DNA of 32,000 nt, from assembly GCA_000830275.1 (NCBI GenBank), contig CP010424.1:600001-632000 (forward strand), in the 5' to 3' direction. The stretch is from an archaeon GW2011_AR10 (GTDB lineage Archaea > Iainarchaeota > Iainarchaeia > Iainarchaeales > GW2011-AR10). The notes beneath the pieces are model-generated. The model ran no database searches. It had not been told where the DNA came from and saw only the letters and a program-made list of their open reading frames with translations. Of the stretch, positions 408 to 30,800 are shown piece by piece. Each line of letters opens with the position of its first letter. The first letter of the stretch is position 1. A program made the position numbers and the translations under genes.

Positions 408-490
408 ATTACGCCCTAGCCAAACAACAGGTTTTCCGCTCACCCACTAAAACAGCTACTAGCACCAGAAAACAGGACGTCCTCCAATGC

Positions 491-687
491 CTAAAGGCGC
501 AGCCTCTTTTTCGCAAGCCTCCTCGTAAAACCTTTGGTTTTACGTGGCCCGCAAAATCCCTGATTTTGCTTGGGTTTTCTAAAAGGCTTAAGGCAGTGGT
601 TCCCCGACATTTACAAAAAGGACGTCTCTTACCCGTCAACGGAAAAAATCCACAAAAAAAAGACCATCTTGCAGAACAAAGTTCTGC
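491..687. repeat. Hairpin-rich intergenic repeat, copy 1 (core 506-586; partner copy at 2519-2641)
   Basis: The 81-bp core 506-586 matches 2540-2620 at 73/81 positions in direct orientation. It holds hairpins at 521-547, 551-569 and 671-687. Relative to copy 2 it carries an extra block of about 83 bp (587-669). It is flanked by ctaaaggc (491-498) and ctaaaaggc (579-587). Confidence 0.75.
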
Positions 688-760
688 GAGACCTCGCAAA
701 CGGAGTTTGCAAGGCTCCCTGAAGGAAGTGGATTTTTTGGGTTGTTAAATGCAAGGCAAG

Positions 761-1051: not shown

Positions 1052-1269
1052 TCCAACACCTCAAAAAAGTTCTGTGAAAAAAGTTAACTCCCTTGGTTCT
1101 TTTAAAGGAATAGCATAAATCGGCTTAACAGGATGGTCTCTAAAAAACACCTCCATAGTGTAAAGTGCAACCCGCCATTTCTGGGTTTTCATAACATCAT
1201 GCATGCAAATAAAACTAAAGAAAATAAACAGTTTTCTGTTGAAGGAAAAAAACGCGAATCTAAAAATGA

Positions 1270-1295
1270 AATAGCCCCGCAGAGATTCGAACTCT
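1270..1295 (-). pseudogene. Orphan tRNA 3'-end fragment (duplicate of the tRNA-Gln 3' end; att-like)
   Basis: 25/26 identity to 2412-2437. That segment covers T-arm positions 50-65, the acceptor 3' strand, the discriminator and 2 flanking nt of the intact tRNA-Gln. No complementary 5' acceptor strand (AGCCCCG) lies nearby. In tRNA sense it is followed by T-runs like a tRNA terminator. Confidence 0.8.
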
Positions 1296-2313: not shown

Positions 2314-2413
2314 TTCAAAAAATCACCCCGTCTTTGTCAGAGAAAAAAAGTTACCCTGCAAAAAAAGGTAGTTGCTTAAGATTTCGCATGAGTAAGCGTA
2401 CCAAATCGGACAA

Positions 2414-2486
2414 TAGCCCCACAGAGATTCGAACTCTGGTCTCGAGCTCCAGAGGCTCGCATCCTTGGCCGCTAGACTATGGGGCT
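2414..2486 (-). tRNA. tRNA-Gln (anticodon CUG), 73 nt, no intron, CCA not encoded
   Basis: The reverse complement folds as a cloverleaf. Acceptor AGCCCCA/TGGGGCT. Anticodon stem CGAGC/GCTCG with loop CTCTGGA (U33, anticodon CTG, G37). T-arm CAGAG-TTCGAAT-CTCTG. Discriminator A. Confidence 0.9.
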
Positions 2487-2518
2487 AAGAACTAAAATTT
2501 ATTTGGTAAACAATTTCT

Positions 2519-2641
2519 TAAAAGGGTTTGCTGTAGGCCCTTTTTCGCAAACCTCCTTGTAAAACCAAAGGTTTTACGAGGCCCGCAAAATCCATGATTT
2601 TGCTTGGGTTTCCTAAAAGGTTTTTGCAGAACAGGTTTTGC
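2519..2641. repeat. Hairpin-rich intergenic repeat, copy 2 (core 2540-2620), immediately upstream of tRNA-Gln
   Basis: 73/81 identity to 506-586. Hairpins at 2555-2581 (12 bp including one G.U), 2585-2603 and 2626-2641. Flanked by aaaagggttt (2520-2529) and aaaaggttt (2615-2623). Confidence 0.75.
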
Positions 2642-2665: not shown

Positions 2666-3250
2666 CTAAAACTTGTTTTCTGGGGGAGTAACAATTATTT
2701 TTGTGAAAAACTGGGAGATTTCCATTACCATTTCCCTTGTTTTCTGGTCGTCTAATGCAATGAGCACTGCCCGAGCGTTAAGCAGCTCAATTTTTCCCAG
2801 CACAAAATGAATGAATTCCTGGATTCTTCTCGGCCTGTTGTAGATCAGGCTCGTTGTAAGCGAGTCATCGAAAAGGAAATCAAACTTGAAGTTCTTTGAA
2901 AGCTTTACTGTAAGGATTGCTGCGCTAGTGAAAGCAGTTGGGCTTCTAAGATAAAAAACGTTGTTTGCCTGTATTGCGAGATTGTTTTCCCTGCTGATGA
3001 AGTCAACAAAAAAGTGCTTGGACGTGTCAATGCCCATCATCTCAAGCTCCCTCTTAATGACCGTTGAAGGCTTGTTAGAGGAAGAATAAATTCCCTTCAA
3101 CTTGAGGTCAAGGATAAGGTGCTTTATCAAGGCATTCCTTGTAGCAAAAAAATCTCCGGGCTTGACCAGAACAAGGTAGGCGTCACCGTTCTTGAAGTCA
3201 CTGAACTGCTCTAAAAGCTCGCTTTCAAACGTTTTCTGGATTGACTGCAA
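2666..3250 (-). CDS. KaiC/RecA-fold-like protein lacking a recognisable Walker A motif (hypothetical)
   Basis: 194 aa. Its layout resembles single KaiC/RadA-like domains: YLVLVKPGDFF...IYSSS...MMGID...FDFLFDDSLTTSL...AVLIALDD. However, GxxxxGK[ST] is replaced by KPGDFFATR. TTG start. Confidence 0.35.
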   Translation of the reverse strand: MQSIQKTFESELLEQFSDFKNGDAYLVLVKPGDFFATRNALIKHLILDLKLKGIYSSSNKPSTVIKRELEMMGIDTSKHFFVDFISRENNLAIQANNVFYLRSPTAFTSAAILTVKLSKNFKFDFLFDDSLTTSLIYNRPRRIQEFIHFVLGKIELLNARAVLIALDDQKTREMVMEISQFFTKIIVTPPENKF

Positions 3251-3315: not shown

Positions 3316-3368
3316 ACTTGTTCCAAGAACAGGTTTTAAAAGATTTTGAAAACAATTAAATAGTAGTT

Positions 3369-3426
3369 TAGCATTAGTTGTATAAAAGTGAATTGTTTAG
3401 CATTAGTTCTATAAAGGTGAATTGTA
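3369..3426. repeat. Tandem duplication 2 x 29 bp (tagcattagttgtataaaagtgaattgtt), each unit carrying a TATA-like box; overlaps the 5' end of the lipoprotein ORF
   Basis: Unit 1 (3369-3397) matches unit 2 (3398-3426) at 26/29. Each unit contains a tataaa(a/g)g motif. Confidence 0.85.
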
Positions 3427-4676
3427 TTAAAACAAAGTTTTTGTTCGTTTTTCTCGCGCTGATTGTATTAGTAAGCGGTTGCATGCAGCAGCCTCCAGCA
3501 ACAGGTGATGGAACAACTCCTCCAATAGGAGGAAATGATGATACTGTTGTGCCTCCAACTGATGGTGGAGGAGGCACAGTAGACGAAGCCCCACCTCAAA
3601 TTGAGCCAGAGGGAGAGGAAATTGATGAAGTAGCGCCGGCTGTAGAACCTGAAACCGTGATTTCAGAAACCAATAGAATTGCGAGGTTTGTTGCAAGCAT
3701 AACTGACAATCCGCTGCCAGCATCCACAGACAGAACTGTTTCAGTTTTCAAGGGAAACGGAAACGATGAGAACTTTGTCCCTCCGGGCCAGCAAGAAGAA
3801 GACCAAAACGATTTAGATGACGATGATGAAAATGAAACTGATGGCTCAAGAGGAAATGGCAGCAAAAAGCCTGAAAGGGTTGACTTGAACAAAATGACTG
3901 CATTGAACATAACCATCGGGGAGATTTCAATTCATTTGAGCAGGAGCTTTGAATCTGTGCCTGATGTCAATGAGACAGAGGACGAAAACGAAGCAGAAGT
4001 TCCTGACCTGAACGAGATGGAAGAGGATGAAAATGAGTTTGAGGAGCCAGACCTGAATGAAACAGAGGACGAAAATGGAGAAGTTCCGGATGTGAACACG
4101 ACAGAAGACGAAAACAATGGCATTGACGACCTCAATGAATCCGAGGAAAATGACGAAAACCAAAACGAGGACGTTAACCTGGGCCTGCAGGAAGACGAGA
4201 ATGCAGTTGGAGAGCAGGACAGCAACGCTTCAACCAAAAAGAAGAACAAATGGATTCTTTTAAGTGAAGAAGAGCAAACCTTTGACTTGCTGCAGCTGAT
4301 TGACACTGAAGCATTGCTTGCTGACAAGGAGATTCCTGCTGGAAAGTACACGCAGATAAGGCTGCAGATTTTGTCAGCCACTGCAGTAATTGATGGCAAC
4401 GAGTTTGATGTGCGGGTGCCACCGAACAAACTGATGCTGCACGGCGTGTTCAATGCAGATGCTAACAGCATTGTTTTCATGAGCCTTGACTTTGATGTTG
4501 GAAAATCAGTGCATGTAACTGGAAACAACCAAATTATTTTGAGGCCGACGATTAGGCTGAAAGTAATTGAAGATACAGAAGTTTCAGTTGAAGACGGCGA
4601 AGTTGAAGCCGAAAGCGGAGAAACAGTGGAAGAATCAGAGCAGGAATTTGACGAAGAGGGCGAAGAAGCCTCTTGA
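3417..4676 (+). CDS. Secreted/lipobox protein with an acidic tandem-repeat linker and a C-terminal DUF4382-like beta domain
   Basis: The ORF is open from 3378, but that segment lies within the duplicated promoter units. The likely start is GTG 3417, giving VNCIKTKFLFVFLALIVLVSGC (signal peptide plus a lipobox-like SGC). The C-terminus IPAGKYTQIRLQILSATAVIDGNEFDVRVPPNKLMLHG...LDFDVGKSV resembles DUF4382. Confidence 0.65.
   Translation: MNCIKTKFLFVFLALIVLVSGCMQQPPATGDGTTPPIGGNDDTVVPPTDGGGGTVDEAPPQIEPEGEEIDEVAPAVEPETVISETNRIARFVASITDNPLPASTDRTVSVFKGNGNDENFVPPGQQEEDQNDLDDDDENETDGSRGNGSKKPERVDLNKMTALNITIGEISIHLSRSFESVPDVNETEDENEAEVPDLNEMEEDENEFEEPDLNETEDENGEVPDVNTTEDENNGIDDLNESEENDENQNEDVNLGLQEDENAVGEQDSNASTKKKNKWILLSEEEQTFDLLQLIDTEALLADKEIPAGKYTQIRLQILSATAVIDGNEFDVRVPPNKLMLHGVFNADANSIVFMSLDFDVGKSVHVTGNNQIILRPTIRLKVIEDTEVSVEDGEVEAESGETVEESEQEFDEEGEEAS
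3958..4200 (+). repeat. Degenerate in-frame tandem repeats encoding about 5 x P-D-[VL]-N-E-T-E-D-E-N acidic units
   Basis: Recurring DNA units ccNgaNNtNaaNgaNacagaggacgaaaaN start near 3960, 4002, 4047, 4085 and 4125. Confidence 0.7.
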
Positions 4677-6559: not shown

Positions 6560-7375
6560 GTGATGGCCGGAAAACCCCTAGTACAAAAAAGGAAAAATCG
6601 CAGAGCTAGTAGGTATGATAGGGAAGAAATTGAGAGAAGAAAAAAATTTAAAAAAATGGAAATAGCAGAACAAAAGAGAAGAAAGGCAAGGCATAGAGAG
6701 AGGAGAGGGGAGCGTTTTTACGATAAAACAACTTTTGTAGGCTTGGATTTTTATAAAAAATTTTTTTCTTTCAGTGATGAAGAAATTGCCGGGAAAAAAA
6801 TCTTGGATGCTGGTGCAGGAACCGGCCAGTTCGCGGTAGACGCTGAAGGGGTTGGAGCAAGAGTTGTTTCATTGTCTCCTGCATACAAAAGCACCAGATA
6901 CGGGAAAATGCTGCGCGGAAAATATGCTACAACTGCCGGCATAGTAGAAAAATTGCCTTACAGGAATGAATCTTTTGATATTGCTTTTGCAAGAAGACTG
7001 ATTCCTACTTTGGTGAAAGGAATCGATAGGTACAGAGGGATTAAGGAATTGTTAAGGGTTGTAAAAAAAGGCGGCTGGATTGGGATAGGCCCTTTTGTCG
7101 GGCCAAGATCAGTACAAGATTATCGCATTCTGAGGATTAAAGATTTTTTTAGGAACACTGGATTCCGATTTACTGTGAACAATGTGGTTGTGCCTACACC
7201 TACATACATGGAAGGAGGCAGTAGAGGAAAAGAAGAAATAGACCGTAGAGGAAAAAAACAAAGGCAAACTTACCTTATAATTCAAAATACTGGGAATATT
7301 GCGAGATTAGAGGAAAAAATAGCAGAGCCTGAGAAAAGAAAAAGTGTTAGAATGCAAAACCCGTTCAACAACTGA
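6560..7375 (+). CDS. Class I SAM-dependent methyltransferase with a Lys/Arg/Glu-rich N-terminal extension
   Basis: ILDAGAGTGQFAV is SAM motif I, and a VKKGGWIGI post-II-like motif follows. The start is GTG 6560 or ATG 6563. Confidence 0.7.
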   Translation: MMAGKPLVQKRKNRRASRYDREEIERRKKFKKMEIAEQKRRKARHRERRGERFYDKTTFVGLDFYKKFFSFSDEEIAGKKILDAGAGTGQFAVDAEGVGARVVSLSPAYKSTRYGKMLRGKYATTAGIVEKLPYRNESFDIAFARRLIPTLVKGIDRYRGIKELLRVVKKGGWIGIGPFVGPRSVQDYRILRIKDFFRNTGFRFTVNNVVVPTPTYMEGGSRGKEEIDRRGKKQRQTYLIIQNTGNIARLEEKIAEPEKRKSVRMQNPFNN

Positions 7376-29462: not shown

Positions 29463-30800
29463 TTGCCTGAGCTTTCAGTGCAGGAAGCGTGGCTTGTCAA
29501 AAACTTTCTCAGCGAGTTTGCTGAAGGAGCCTATGGCAAAGGAAATTCTGAGCCGATTGAAGTTGCACTTAAAAAATTTTGCGAGAAAAACTGGGTTGAG
29601 CTGGATGATGGGCAGCGAGAGTACTTGGTTAAAACGCTTCAATTGCTTGCCTTTGAATTCGGGTTCCTTTCAATCATCTTGGAAGACGACAACATAGAGG
29701 AAGTTGCGGTAATCGGCTTGCATAAACCGGTTTATGTTTTTGACAGAGCATTCGGCTGGATGAAAACCAATGCCTTTTATTCAAGCGAAGCAGCCGTTAA
29801 AAATGCAGCCAACAAAATGGCAAGGCAGATTGGCAGGCACTTAAGCCTCCAAAACCCAAAACTGAATGCAGTGCTGCCGAACGGAAGCAGGCTGAATGCA
29901 TGCATTGAGCCGGCAGCAATGCAGCCTGCAATCACAATAAGGAAGTTCAGGGAAAAACCTTTTACTCCAACAGAGCTTGTTGCCAACAGAACGATTTCAA
30001 GTGAAGCCATTGCTTTCCTGTGGGCGGCAATGCAGACTGACTGCTCCATGCTAGTGTGTGGCAACACTGGCAGCGGGAAAACAAGCACACTGAACGCGCT
30101 TTTCTGTTTTGTTCCAAAAGAGGAGAGAATTATTGTAACAGAGGAAACCCCTGAAATAAACCTGCCGCACGAACACATGGTAAAGCTCGTAACTGTTCAA
30201 AACATTGGCATTGGCATGAGTGAACTCATCGAGAATACTTTAAGGATGAGGCCTGACAGGGTTGTTGTTGGTGAAATACGGAACAGGGAAGAAGTGAATG
30301 CATTCATTGACACTCTCCTTGCAGGGCAGGGAAAGGGCTGCTATGCTACTTTTCACGCCAGATCCGCGAAAGAAGCTGCGCTGAGAATGAAGAAGTTAGG
30401 AGTGATGGAAATGGATCTTGGGGCAGTTGACATTATTCTTGTTCAGAAAAGGTGGAATTCTGTCAGAGAAAAAAAGGTTTCAGCCGAAGGCCCATTTTCG
30501 CAAACCTTTTCCCAAAAGGTTTCAGCCGAAGTCAGGCGCATCACTGAAATTGTTGAGGTCAGCCATTCAGCTGAAGGGCTTGAGTTGCGCACACTGTTTG
30601 AATTTGACCACGAAAAAGGCATGCTTGTCAGAAAGAACAGGAGCTCAAAGGTGATGGAGAAAATGAAAATCACTTTCGGTTTAAATGAAAAGCAGTTGGG
30701 GAAGCTGTTGAAGCAAAGGGAGAAAAGGCTTCGCCTGCTGCAGGCAAAAGAGCCATCATTGAAGGAATTCTTCGAGGAAATCAGCAATGAACCAGACTGA
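29463..30800 (+). CDS. Type II/IV secretion-system ATPase (FlaI/ArlI / PilB / VirB11 family); the true N-terminus is probably upstream (frame open from 29274)
   Basis: Walker A VCGNTGSGKTSTLNAL. Walker B RPDRVVVGEIR. His box ATFHARS. The in-frame upstream translation ...HYIIRALPELSVQEA resembles the conserved N-domain. Only TTG 29463 is a canonical start. Confidence 0.85.
   Translation: MPELSVQEAWLVKNFLSEFAEGAYGKGNSEPIEVALKKFCEKNWVELDDGQREYLVKTLQLLAFEFGFLSIILEDDNIEEVAVIGLHKPVYVFDRAFGWMKTNAFYSSEAAVKNAANKMARQIGRHLSLQNPKLNAVLPNGSRLNACIEPAAMQPAITIRKFREKPFTPTELVANRTISSEAIAFLWAAMQTDCSMLVCGNTGSGKTSTLNALFCFVPKEERIIVTEETPEINLPHEHMVKLVTVQNIGIGMSELIENTLRMRPDRVVVGEIRNREEVNAFIDTLLAGQGKGCYATFHARSAKEAALRMKKLGVMEMDLGAVDIILVQKRWNSVREKKVSAEGPFSQTFSQKVSAEVRRITEIVEVSHSAEGLELRTLFEFDHEKGMLVRKNRSSKVMEKMKITFGLNEKQLGKLLKQREKRLRLLQAKEPSLKEFFEEISNEPD
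30472..30531 (+). repeat. 18-bp perfect direct repeat (aaaaggtttcagccgaag) at a 42-bp period, enclosing a 24-bp fragment of the intergenic hairpin repeat, in frame inside the ATPase gene
   Basis: 30472-30489 equals 30514-30531. 30488-30507 matches 2535-2554 at 19/20. A 9-bp-stem palindrome aaacctttt-ccc-aaaaggttt lies at 30502-30522. It encodes KVSAE-GPFSQTFSQ-KVSAE. Confidence 0.8.

Follow-up and report, generated by a model that had tools for sequence, protein, structure and literature searches.

The stretch of DNA analysed here (the window) comprises 32,000 nt of the archaeon GW2011_AR10 (Candidatus Iainarchaeum, Diapherotrites, DPANN), positions 600,001 to 632,000 of the forward strand of contig CP010424.1 (GenBank assembly GCA_000830275.1). 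The same region occurs in many groundwater metagenomes, at about 99.8% identity to the window. It carries three copies of a short hairpin-forming repeat, which we call the R element: two between genes and one inside the reading frame of an ATPase gene. Other loci of the same lineage carry further copies, and related strains differ in which units they hold. R elements probably represent a dispersed family of modular, selfish, non-autonomous DNA, mobile or unstable in the manner of palindromic and miniature elements of other genomes, rather than being primarily genes for small RNAs. The three copies, their cassettes and the tRNA gene next to copy 2 are as follows (window coordinates; ORF, open reading frame).

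499–589, plus strand: copy 1 (R1), 91 nt, GCAG-CCTCTTTTTCGCAAGCCT-[54-nt cassette]-TTTTCT-AAAAGGCTT; repeat shared with copy 2 (nhmmer E = 2e-33)
521–574, plus strand: cassette of copy 1, hairpins H1 (521–547) and H2 (548–574), with perfect stems of 9 and 8 bp
2520–2632, plus strand: copy 2 (R2), repeat shared with copy 1 (nhmmer E = 1e-33)
2555–2608, plus strand: cassette of copy 2, 54 nt, two hairpins; exactly these nucleotides are missing from one natural strain
30472–30531, plus strand: copy 3 (C3), a short form that lacks the cassette, within the reading frame of a FlaI/CpaF-type ATPase gene (ORF 29463–30800); repeat search of the window
2413–2487, minus strand: tRNA-Gln(CTG), context for copy 2; ARAGORN, with an Rfam tRNA match of 60.7 bits

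Copy 1 lies between two convergent genes, one for an FAD-dependent reductase, which stops at 407, and one for an OB-fold protein, which stops at 761. Copy 2 has minus-strand neighbours on both sides, the end of ORF 2666–3250 and the 5′ end of tRNA-Gln(CTG); it is situated 33 nt upstream of the tRNA, which runs on the opposite strand. The left AAAAGG motif of copy 2, CTTTTAAG when read on the minus strand (2517–2524), falls 30–37 nt upstream of the tRNA 5′ end. This is about the position expected of an archaeal TATA box, and the repeat may supply or overlap the tRNA-Gln promoter. The ATPase hosting copy 3 is AJF60204.1 (100% identity). The remaining window genes comprise a glycosylation and cell-surface cluster, together with the pilus-type ATPase and a platform protein.

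Copies 1 and 2 had been recognized in an earlier note as one hairpin-rich repeat with an 81-bp core, and this comparison was reproduced: 506–586 and 2540–2620 agree in direct orientation at 73 of 81 positions, differing at 517, 524, 533–535, 545, 560 and 578. As a control, the remainder of the window was shuffled five times, and no 81-mer then matched better than 36–38/81. The repeat extends further, to 501–589 versus 2535–2623 (78/89, BLAST E = 2e-25). Both strong hairpins are present, as cgtaaaacc-ttt-ggttttacg and gcaaaatc-cct-gattttgc in copy 1 and as gtaaaacc-aaa-ggttttac and gcaaaatc-cat-gattttgc in copy 2, where the first hairpin has eight perfect base pairs and an additional outer T·G pair. 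The loop change from ttt to aaa, the C–G to T·G change and the repair of a T/T mismatch to T–A were likewise confirmed. Hairpin 1 of R1 is the exact reverse complement of hairpin 1 of R2 (23/23), and the loop difference is therefore best read as a flip of the whole hairpin; two differences then cover what would need five substitutions. A resemblance of 427–455 to the tail of copy 2, also noted earlier, is at chance level (BLAST E 0.09–4.8).

The basic unit of the R element is 41–42 nt long and joins AAAAGGTTTCAGCCGAAG to GCCCnTTTTCGCAAACCTTTTCCn, with a part of about 18 nt, AAAAGG-TTT-CAGCCGAAG, and a core of about 24 nt, GCCCnTTTTCGCAAACCTTTTCCn. Across the compared copies, this base unit reads TTT-CAGCCGAAGGC-nn-TTTTCGCAAACCTTTTCCT-AAAAGG. 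It contains a 9-bp hairpin, AAACCTTTT-CCN-AAAAGGTTT, formed between the core and the AAAAGGTTT that follows it; AAAAGGTTT/AAACCTTTT, an internal inverted repeat of 9 nt, belongs to the unit. Long units, of about 96 nt, hold in addition a 54-nt cassette placed exactly at AAACCT^TTTCC and made of two 27-nt hairpins, H1 (CCTyGTAAAACC-NNN-GGTTTTACGwGG) and H2 (CCCGCAAAATC-NNN-GATTTTGC-TT-GGG). R2 shows the complete layout: AAAAGGGTTTGCTGTAG (2520–2536), core GCCCTTTTTCGCAAACCT (2537–2554), the two 27-nt cassette hairpins (2555–2581 and 2582–2608), TTTCCT (2609–2614) and AAAAGGTTTTTGCAGAAC (2615–2632). Single units such as R2 and the ATPase copy are bordered on both sides by the AAAAGG...CAG part of about 18 nt; in copy 3 an 18-nt repeat (30472–30489) is followed by the 24-nt core (30490–30513) and the second 18-nt repeat (30514–30531). 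Units also form tandem arrays, in the loci L044 and L046. The L044 array consists of three 41-nt short units, then long and partial units, and partial units meet at a shared AAAGGTTTT motif. The short (c)taaa(a)gg motifs that the earlier note placed at the ends of both copies are real, but they are the repeated AAAAGG hairpin arm or unit junction of the family itself and not simple target-site duplications.

The surroundings of copy 1 contain two other small elements, E2 and E3. R1 is flanked by a 5-nt duplication, AAGGC, at 494–498 and 590–594. Cutting out 499–594 restores an E2-type hairpin, TGCCTAAAGGCAGTGG (TGCC-TAAA-GGCA), and the flanks brought together in this way align to the E2 insert of the related contig L001 with a local score of 74 (shuffles 18.5 ± 3.1). 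Given the alignment of the flanks and the hairpin restored on excision, copy 1 is a 91-nt R element (499–589) that sits within an E2 hairpin loop, with AAGGC duplicated. E2 is itself present or absent between strains: 8 of 10 related contigs carry a 117-nt E2 with duplicated AATGA at the position of window 1265–1269, a site that adjoins a tRNA fragment, and the window, L008 and L009 are empty there.

476–745, plus strand: host mosaic around copy 1, E2-like at 476–498 and 595–650, terminal TTTTGGGTTG at 733–745, E3 at 664–713; alignment to the L001 E2 insert
1265–1269, plus strand: empty E2 site, AATGA; comparison of ten related contigs

By inspection only, the terminal TTTTGGGTTG is common to the L001 E2 insert. 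The block of about 83 bp that had been counted as an extra part of copy 1 is foreign to the R repeat and belongs to its host element E2. A third hairpin reported at 671–687 does exist, but as a portion of E3, which recurs beside the R copy of L045 (48/50 identical to L045 2513–2562). The long gap from 408 to 760 thus combines three or more families of small repeats in a mosaic, and almost all of it is repeat DNA.

Further copies were collected by scanning a metagenome collection with the H2 pattern and by a protein search baited with six-frame translations of the repeat; all fetched loci were then searched with nhmmer and a 4-copy profile. Full-length copies (E = 1e-34 to 4e-28) were found at window 492–598 and 2528–2629, L045 2617–2720, L044 2013–2111 (in the array), L046 10570–10674 and 6700–6802, and L049 10945–11044, and the short copy was placed at window 30479–30553. 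At least eight loci of the GW2011_AR10 lineage, of 60–150 nt each, carry the family, so that the two copies seen first are not the only ones. The proteins that flank or host the copies are identical to GW2011_AR10 proteins or fall within their 90%-identity clusters. By inspection of the ORF lists, some copies are sense and others antisense to the neighbouring or host genes. Scanning assembled-genome contigs with the H2 pattern gave three loci, none of AR10; two of them, one in a cyanobacterial metagenome-assembled genome (MAG) and one in a tandem repeat of Gracilibacteria, may have matched by chance. No match to the H2 pattern was obtained in viral contigs; a 16-mer of E2 matched there 15 times, which we take as chance for a 16-mer.

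Three protein genes contain R sequence in frame. In the ATPase, where copy 3 encodes ...KVSAEGPFSQTFSQKVSAE..., the insert adds VSAEGPFSQTFSQK (14 aa) to a variable loop between conserved strands, and these residues are missing from 17/17 aligned homologues. In a HAD phosphatase (P0121; AJF60785.1; 263 aa), about 48 residues are translations of two minus-strand R frames; its homologues in PDB have 213–259 aa and align only up to residues 167–204 of the 263. A 717-aa membrane protein (P0122; AJF60140.1) contains NPSKIRDFAGHVKPKVLHGGLRKMAYGKN, which is another R frame. The peptides predicted from the inserts include GPFSQTFSQK (ATPase), KPKQNHGFCGSR (HAD phosphatase) and DFAGHVKPK (717-aa membrane protein). 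Three of the six R frames are open and used by the genic copies, and none is open in every copy. Two ORFs of 127 and 96 aa that overlie copy 1 were rejected as coding: they have no Pfam match, and no frame is open in all copies.

Comparison of near-identical strains revealed discrete gains or losses. In contig L005 (ERZ4903072), precisely the 54 nt of the copy 2 cassette are missing; the sequence there is AAACCT/TTTCCT, the junction of the short form, and four other strains keep the cassette. Slippage between direct repeats was rejected as the source of this 54-nt difference, there being no microhomology at the junctions. The ATPase occurs in the population as alleles of 440/445 aa and of 426 aa. 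The empty site reads ...AAAAAGGTTTCAGCCGAAATTAGG; its DNA (L050) has ...GAAAAAAAGGTTTCAGCCGAAATTAGG... and is 42 nt short. Otherwise, it differs from the filled site by only two changes in 220 nt, both in the codon beside the junction. Because the 14 residues are absent from all 17 aligned homologues, the empty state fits the ancestral length of the protein. Between L044 and L032, the differences are a loop flip, stem changes and a different left flank. We also observed that contig L053 (ERZ5996431 NODE_16600), at about 1990–2180, joins the left side of L045 (a DUF4199 gene) to the far right side of the intergenic R locus of L046, with the crossover in a shared repeat stretch of about 34 nt. 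Either two copies have recombined here or the contig, at a low coverage of 2x, is an assembly chimera.

As a single strand, the long unit is predicted to fold into a four-way junction, whichever strand is used, with folding z-scores of −2.9 to −4.2 (R1 cassette about −4). In seven distinct long copies, 96.9% of the cells pair, and sliding the partners abolishes the pairing. Three pairs are changed on both sides: A–T to G–C in the outer stem (R1), and in H1 T–A to A–T and T–A to C–G, the latter in three copies. One H1 pair is T·G on the plus strand in 6/7 copies and becomes an A/C mismatch if the other strand is read. The 11 pairs of H2 are invariant and its loop is variable (CCT, CAT, TAT). 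This shows that the hairpins matter. It does not prove a role as RNA, because the sample is small (seven copies, related in sequence to one another) and because DNA palindromes can gain matched changes by intrastrand template switching, in which no selection on an RNA is involved.

The earlier note had left open whether these repeats were a family of structured small RNAs or a non-autonomous element resembling a miniature inverted-repeat transposable element (MITE) with ends like target-site duplications. The occurrence at eight or more loci, the presence and absence alleles, the nesting with a 5-nt duplication, the tandem arrays and the in-frame copies in three genes argue for a mobile element. 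The likeness to a MITE holds to that extent but not in detail, since clear terminal inverted repeats are lacking and the supposed target duplication, AAAAGG, lies inside the repeat unit. R units occupy intergenic spacers, nest in other small elements, build tandem arrays, and persist in protein genes as extra surface peptides wherever the frame stays open. They would spread at the DNA level, through a folded single strand or through short shared homology of the AAAGGTTT type. The agent could be a hairpin-recognizing enzyme acting in trans, or template switching or recombination in replication. Recognition of a folded single strand, as in IS200/IS605 and in repetitive extragenic palindromic (REP) sequences with their REP-associated tyrosine transposases (RAYTs), is suggested by the scar-free insertion or deletion of the cassette at the hairpin feet and by the invariant H2 stem, and a classical staggered cut by the 5-nt duplications at R1 and E2. 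Insertion sites that resemble the unit junction could let arrays grow by re-insertion.

Several observations weigh against this interpretation. Searches of the window and of the fetched loci yielded no transposase or other candidate mobilizing gene. Terminal inverted repeats are limited to a weak candidate at R1, AGCCTCTTTT versus AAAAGGCTT, and E2 has no candidate. The duplications are of inconsistent length, with 5 nt at R1 (AAGGC) and E2 (AATGA), 17–18 nt at the ATPase copy and none at the cassette, so that no single classical transposition mechanism covers all events. Each polymorphism can be read as a loss instead of a gain, and the empty ATPase allele is derivable by recombination between the two 18-nt repeats. 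At that empty site, 17 nt are identical to the unit junction of the family. The identity may reflect a strong preference for targets of junction-like sequence (which would also explain the tandem arrays), homology-guided copy-in, or a solo remnant left by the loss of a unit. The three covarying pairs and the wobble pair confined to the plus strand are also expected of a functional RNA. Finally, the copy count covers about 80 kb of a 1.24-Mb genome.

R elements can be compared with several known systems. Rickettsia palindromic elements (RPEs) are about 150 bp long and form ten families; 44 integrations are known in Rickettsia conorii, nearly half of them in frame within ORFs (PMC10969869). In behaviour, they are the closest parallel. 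Both are short palindromic hairpin repeats in the small genome of a host-dependent organism, both are scattered between genes and also sit in the reading frame of unrelated housekeeping genes, whose proteins gain a peptide but are not destroyed, and neither has a transposase of its own. A palindromic repeat in frame with the ORF left open, which characterizes RPEs, is present in the ATPase, the HAD phosphatase and the 717-aa membrane protein. R elements differ in that their host is an archaeon, and sequence homology to RPE-1 to RPE-10 is not expected. R units are also far smaller (41–42 nt for the base unit, about 96 nt with the cassette), modular and array-forming, with a separable 54-nt two-hairpin cassette, and their empty and filled alleles coexist in one natural population.

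In their anatomy of hairpin mosaics, R elements are closest to the REP sequences and bacterial interspersed mosaic elements (BIMEs). REP and BIME sequences of bacteria are imperfect palindromes of about 27–35 nt that are mobilized by RAYT transposases, Y1 enzymes similar to those of IS200/IS605. Palindromes of roughly 20–40 nt arranged in mosaics with linkers are found here too, as the 27-nt H1 and H2, the linker units and the arrays of L044 and L046. Both have a conserved stem and a free loop, and the active form is likely to be a single-strand hairpin; the R cassette is gained or lost precisely and without duplication, as in events of the IS200/IS605 type. REPs are, however, extragenic by definition, whereas three R copies lie inside coding sequences. 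No conserved 5′ tetranucleotide of the GTAG type was seen in R elements, and the RAYT genes to which REP and BIME sequences are tied, or TnpA genes, were not found in the DNA examined. REP/RAYT systems are, to our knowledge, undescribed in DPANN archaea.

Archaeal MITEs include SM1–SM4 of Sulfolobus. A census based on terminal inverted repeats gives high MITE densities in some DPANN genomes (PMC11602168). Like MITEs, R elements are small (below about 500 bp), non-coding and multi-copy, vary between strains, are nested, and show 5-nt duplications at two insertions (R1 and E2). They lack clear terminal inverted repeats, and the ATPase copy has a duplication of 17–18 nt. The repeats flanking R copies are similar in all copies and are therefore part of the element or of a preferred target, not random target duplications. 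A further parallel is offered by plastid non-coding DNA, where hairpin loops undergo small inversions, and by template switching at quasi-palindromes. H1 likewise flips its 3-nt loop between TTT and AAA, from copy to copy and from strain to strain, with an unchanged stem, as expected if the hairpin forms in DNA. The plastid and quasi-palindrome changes are, however, local mutations confined to one site, whereas R elements are a dispersed family. In the literature searched (Iainarchaeum, Diapherotrites and DPANN), we found no description of the R family or of in-frame palindromic elements in archaea.

We considered whether the 27-nt hairpin, CCC(A)GCAAAATC-NNN-GATTTTGC(T)TGGG, might be mobile by itself, as a module shared across DPANN and possibly the candidate phyla radiation (CPR). 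It would spread without an element-encoded transposase, and its targets would include protein genes as well as intergenic DNA, the T-loop of a tRNA and a helix of 23S rRNA. The H2 hairpin, often extended to CCCA...TGGG, recurs in other contigs. In a Candidatus Woesearchaeota MAG (L012, CAYGVN010000004.1, minus strand 6186–5905), an insert of about 211 nt, consisting almost wholly of short hairpins with an H2-type hairpin among them, splits the T-loop of a tRNA-Asp(GTC) gene at position 59/60. Despite the insert, pairing in the acceptor and T stems is preserved, ARAGORN misses the gene, and the boundaries form at best a relaxed bulge-helix-bulge. A bacterial 23S rRNA (L037, FWPU01023888.1, about 1125–1170) has a 26-nt insertion near Rfam-model position 1755, in a variable helix, with the same hairpin (CCCAAGCAAAAUC-UUU-GAUUUUGCUGGG), whether by chance or as a hairpin module in common. 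In another protein (PSKISDFAP), an H2-type hairpin is in frame. A Gracilibacteria MAG (L013, JAIPIF010000007.1, 3270–3700), from a CPR bacterium, carries two tandem units of about 205 nt with several GC-rich hairpins, including GCAAAATC-TTC-GATTTTGC.

The idea of a mobile 27-nt hairpin draws on the invariant stem and free loop, the CCCA-extended hairpin in unrelated contigs, the tRNA, 23S and protein cases, and the 17-nt identity at the ATPase site. Such a module would move by homology-guided copy-in at junction-like sites, its arrays growing somewhat like CRISPR, or by a host enzyme that recognizes the folded strand, and might be excised from RNA genes in the manner of an intron. Some of the distant H2 matches may be chance for a 20-base pattern in a very large database and serve as leads only. 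We consider this extended scenario unlikely.

That the palindromes serve the host, as protein-binding sites, as hairpins that end transcripts or stabilize mRNA, or as promoter elements spread by recombination and kept for their function, is similarly not a likely account of the family. Such a role has reportedly been proposed for some REP sequences. It would suit the intergenic copies at gene ends, with R1 between convergent genes and R2 downstream of ORF 2666–3250, and the left AAAAGG/CTTTTAAG motif of R2, which would sit at TATA-box distance from tRNA-Gln. The invariant palindromic H2 stem with its free 3-nt spacer also resembles a site that a dimer could bind. The in-frame genic copies and the presence and absence between strains indicate, on the other hand, that individual copies are dispensable, their position and orientation relative to genes are inconsistent, and hairpins are not needed for archaeal termination.

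A family of structured small non-coding RNAs is still less probable. The copies would then be transcribed and adopt the four-way fold (outer stem, H1, H2 and a small hairpin), either working in trans or serving as a signal for processing or for regulation in cis. The strong predicted folding, the 96.9% pairing with three compensated pairs, the H1 T·G pair on the plus strand in 6/7 copies and the location of copy 2 between a gene end and a tRNA would all agree with this. However, the repeats match no Rfam family: in a covariance search of Rfam 15 opened to E ≤ 10, only tRNA-Gln passed its gathering score, and the best hits on the repeats (E = 0.12–8) stayed far below theirs. Some copies run with the neighbouring or host gene and others against it, three lie in frame within coding sequence, and units and cassettes are gained, lost, flipped and shuffled among near-identical strains. 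The fixed H2 stem with its variable loop points to recognition of sequence rather than of shape alone, and intrastrand template switching could account for the compensatory changes. The small-RNA alternative of the earlier note is not supported.

Integron-type attC recombination sites, with R1 and R2 bracketing a 2-kb cassette region, are very improbable: R1 and R2 have the same orientation and flank a toxin–antitoxin pair and small ORFs, a paralogous pair lies beside the R mosaic of L045, and attC sites do work as folded single strands, but R copies are dispersed and inside unrelated genes instead of in one array, there is no integrase in the window or nearby, and H1 has GGTTTTAC in place of the R′ consensus GTTRRRY (checked by eye only). 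Tested as an attC candidate, the repeat was rejected on the combination of array, intI and RYYYAAC/GTTRRRY motifs. An archaeal bulge-helix-bulge intron was also rejected, because R1, R2 and C3 lie outside RNA genes and the cassette boundaries (AAACCT/CCTTG ... TTGGG/TTTCC) fall at the predicted four-way junction and not at a bulge-helix-bulge. The one case located in a tRNA is the distant L012.

Between the two intergenic copies lies a partial duplicate of tRNA-Gln.

1270–1295, minus strand: duplicate of the tRNA-Gln 3′ end, 25/26 identical to 2412–2437; repeat search of the window

The duplicated piece comprises the last 23 nt of the tRNA and 3 nt past its end, 1.1 kb apart. Between the duplicates lie a toxin–antitoxin pair similar to RelE/ParE–YoeB (1369–1659 and 1656–2009) and a gene for a small membrane protein (2110–2313); the matches of ORF 1656–2009 to Pfam YoeB/ParE are under the gathering score. 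The stretch looks like the degraded remains, 1.1 kb long, of an element that integrated into the tRNA-Gln 3′ end; it holds the toxin–antitoxin pair but no integrase, and the 1270–1295 copy probably marks its far, att-like end. A split or intron-containing tRNA at 1270–1310 was rejected: there is no plausible anticodon arm upstream, and the 26-nt identity also overruns the tRNA end, like an att-site duplicate. At another AR10 locus, L045, a paralogous toxin–antitoxin pair (39% and 42% identity) at 1772–2403 is located about 110 nt from the R/E3 mosaic. Toxin–antitoxin cassettes and small repeats may be travelling or accumulating together.

Other repeats or variable segments were noticed in the window. 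The sequence at about 7165–7326, in the 3′ part of a methyltransferase ORF (6560–7375), varies between strains, with about 100 nt that cannot be aligned in L001 and a tandem duplication of about 52 nt in L003. At 3366–3423, at the start of the gene for a DUF4382 protein (3378–4676), a 29-nt sequence is tandemly duplicated in perfect register (27/29 identical; GTTTAGCATTAGTTGTATAAAAGTGAATT), which may represent a doubled promoter or 5′ region. Inside the same ORF, at 3959–4122, three 38-nt repeats (68–79% identical) encode an acidic repeated peptide of the PDxNETEDEN type.

The genomes of DPANN archaea are very small and compact, and the organisms are assumed to live in dependence on hosts, a lifestyle similar to that of Rickettsia, in which in-frame palindromic selfish DNA was first described. 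An analogous family in an archaeon suggests that in-frame palindromic genome parasites, and the creation of peptides by them, are not peculiar to one bacterial lineage. In practice, such repeats can break or mis-join assemblies, create spurious ORFs and alter the lengths of annotated proteins. With filled and empty alleles segregating in one aquifer population, R elements offer a natural, time-resolved system, in which the Rifle metagenome series could be used to estimate rates of gain and loss and to hunt for the enzyme.

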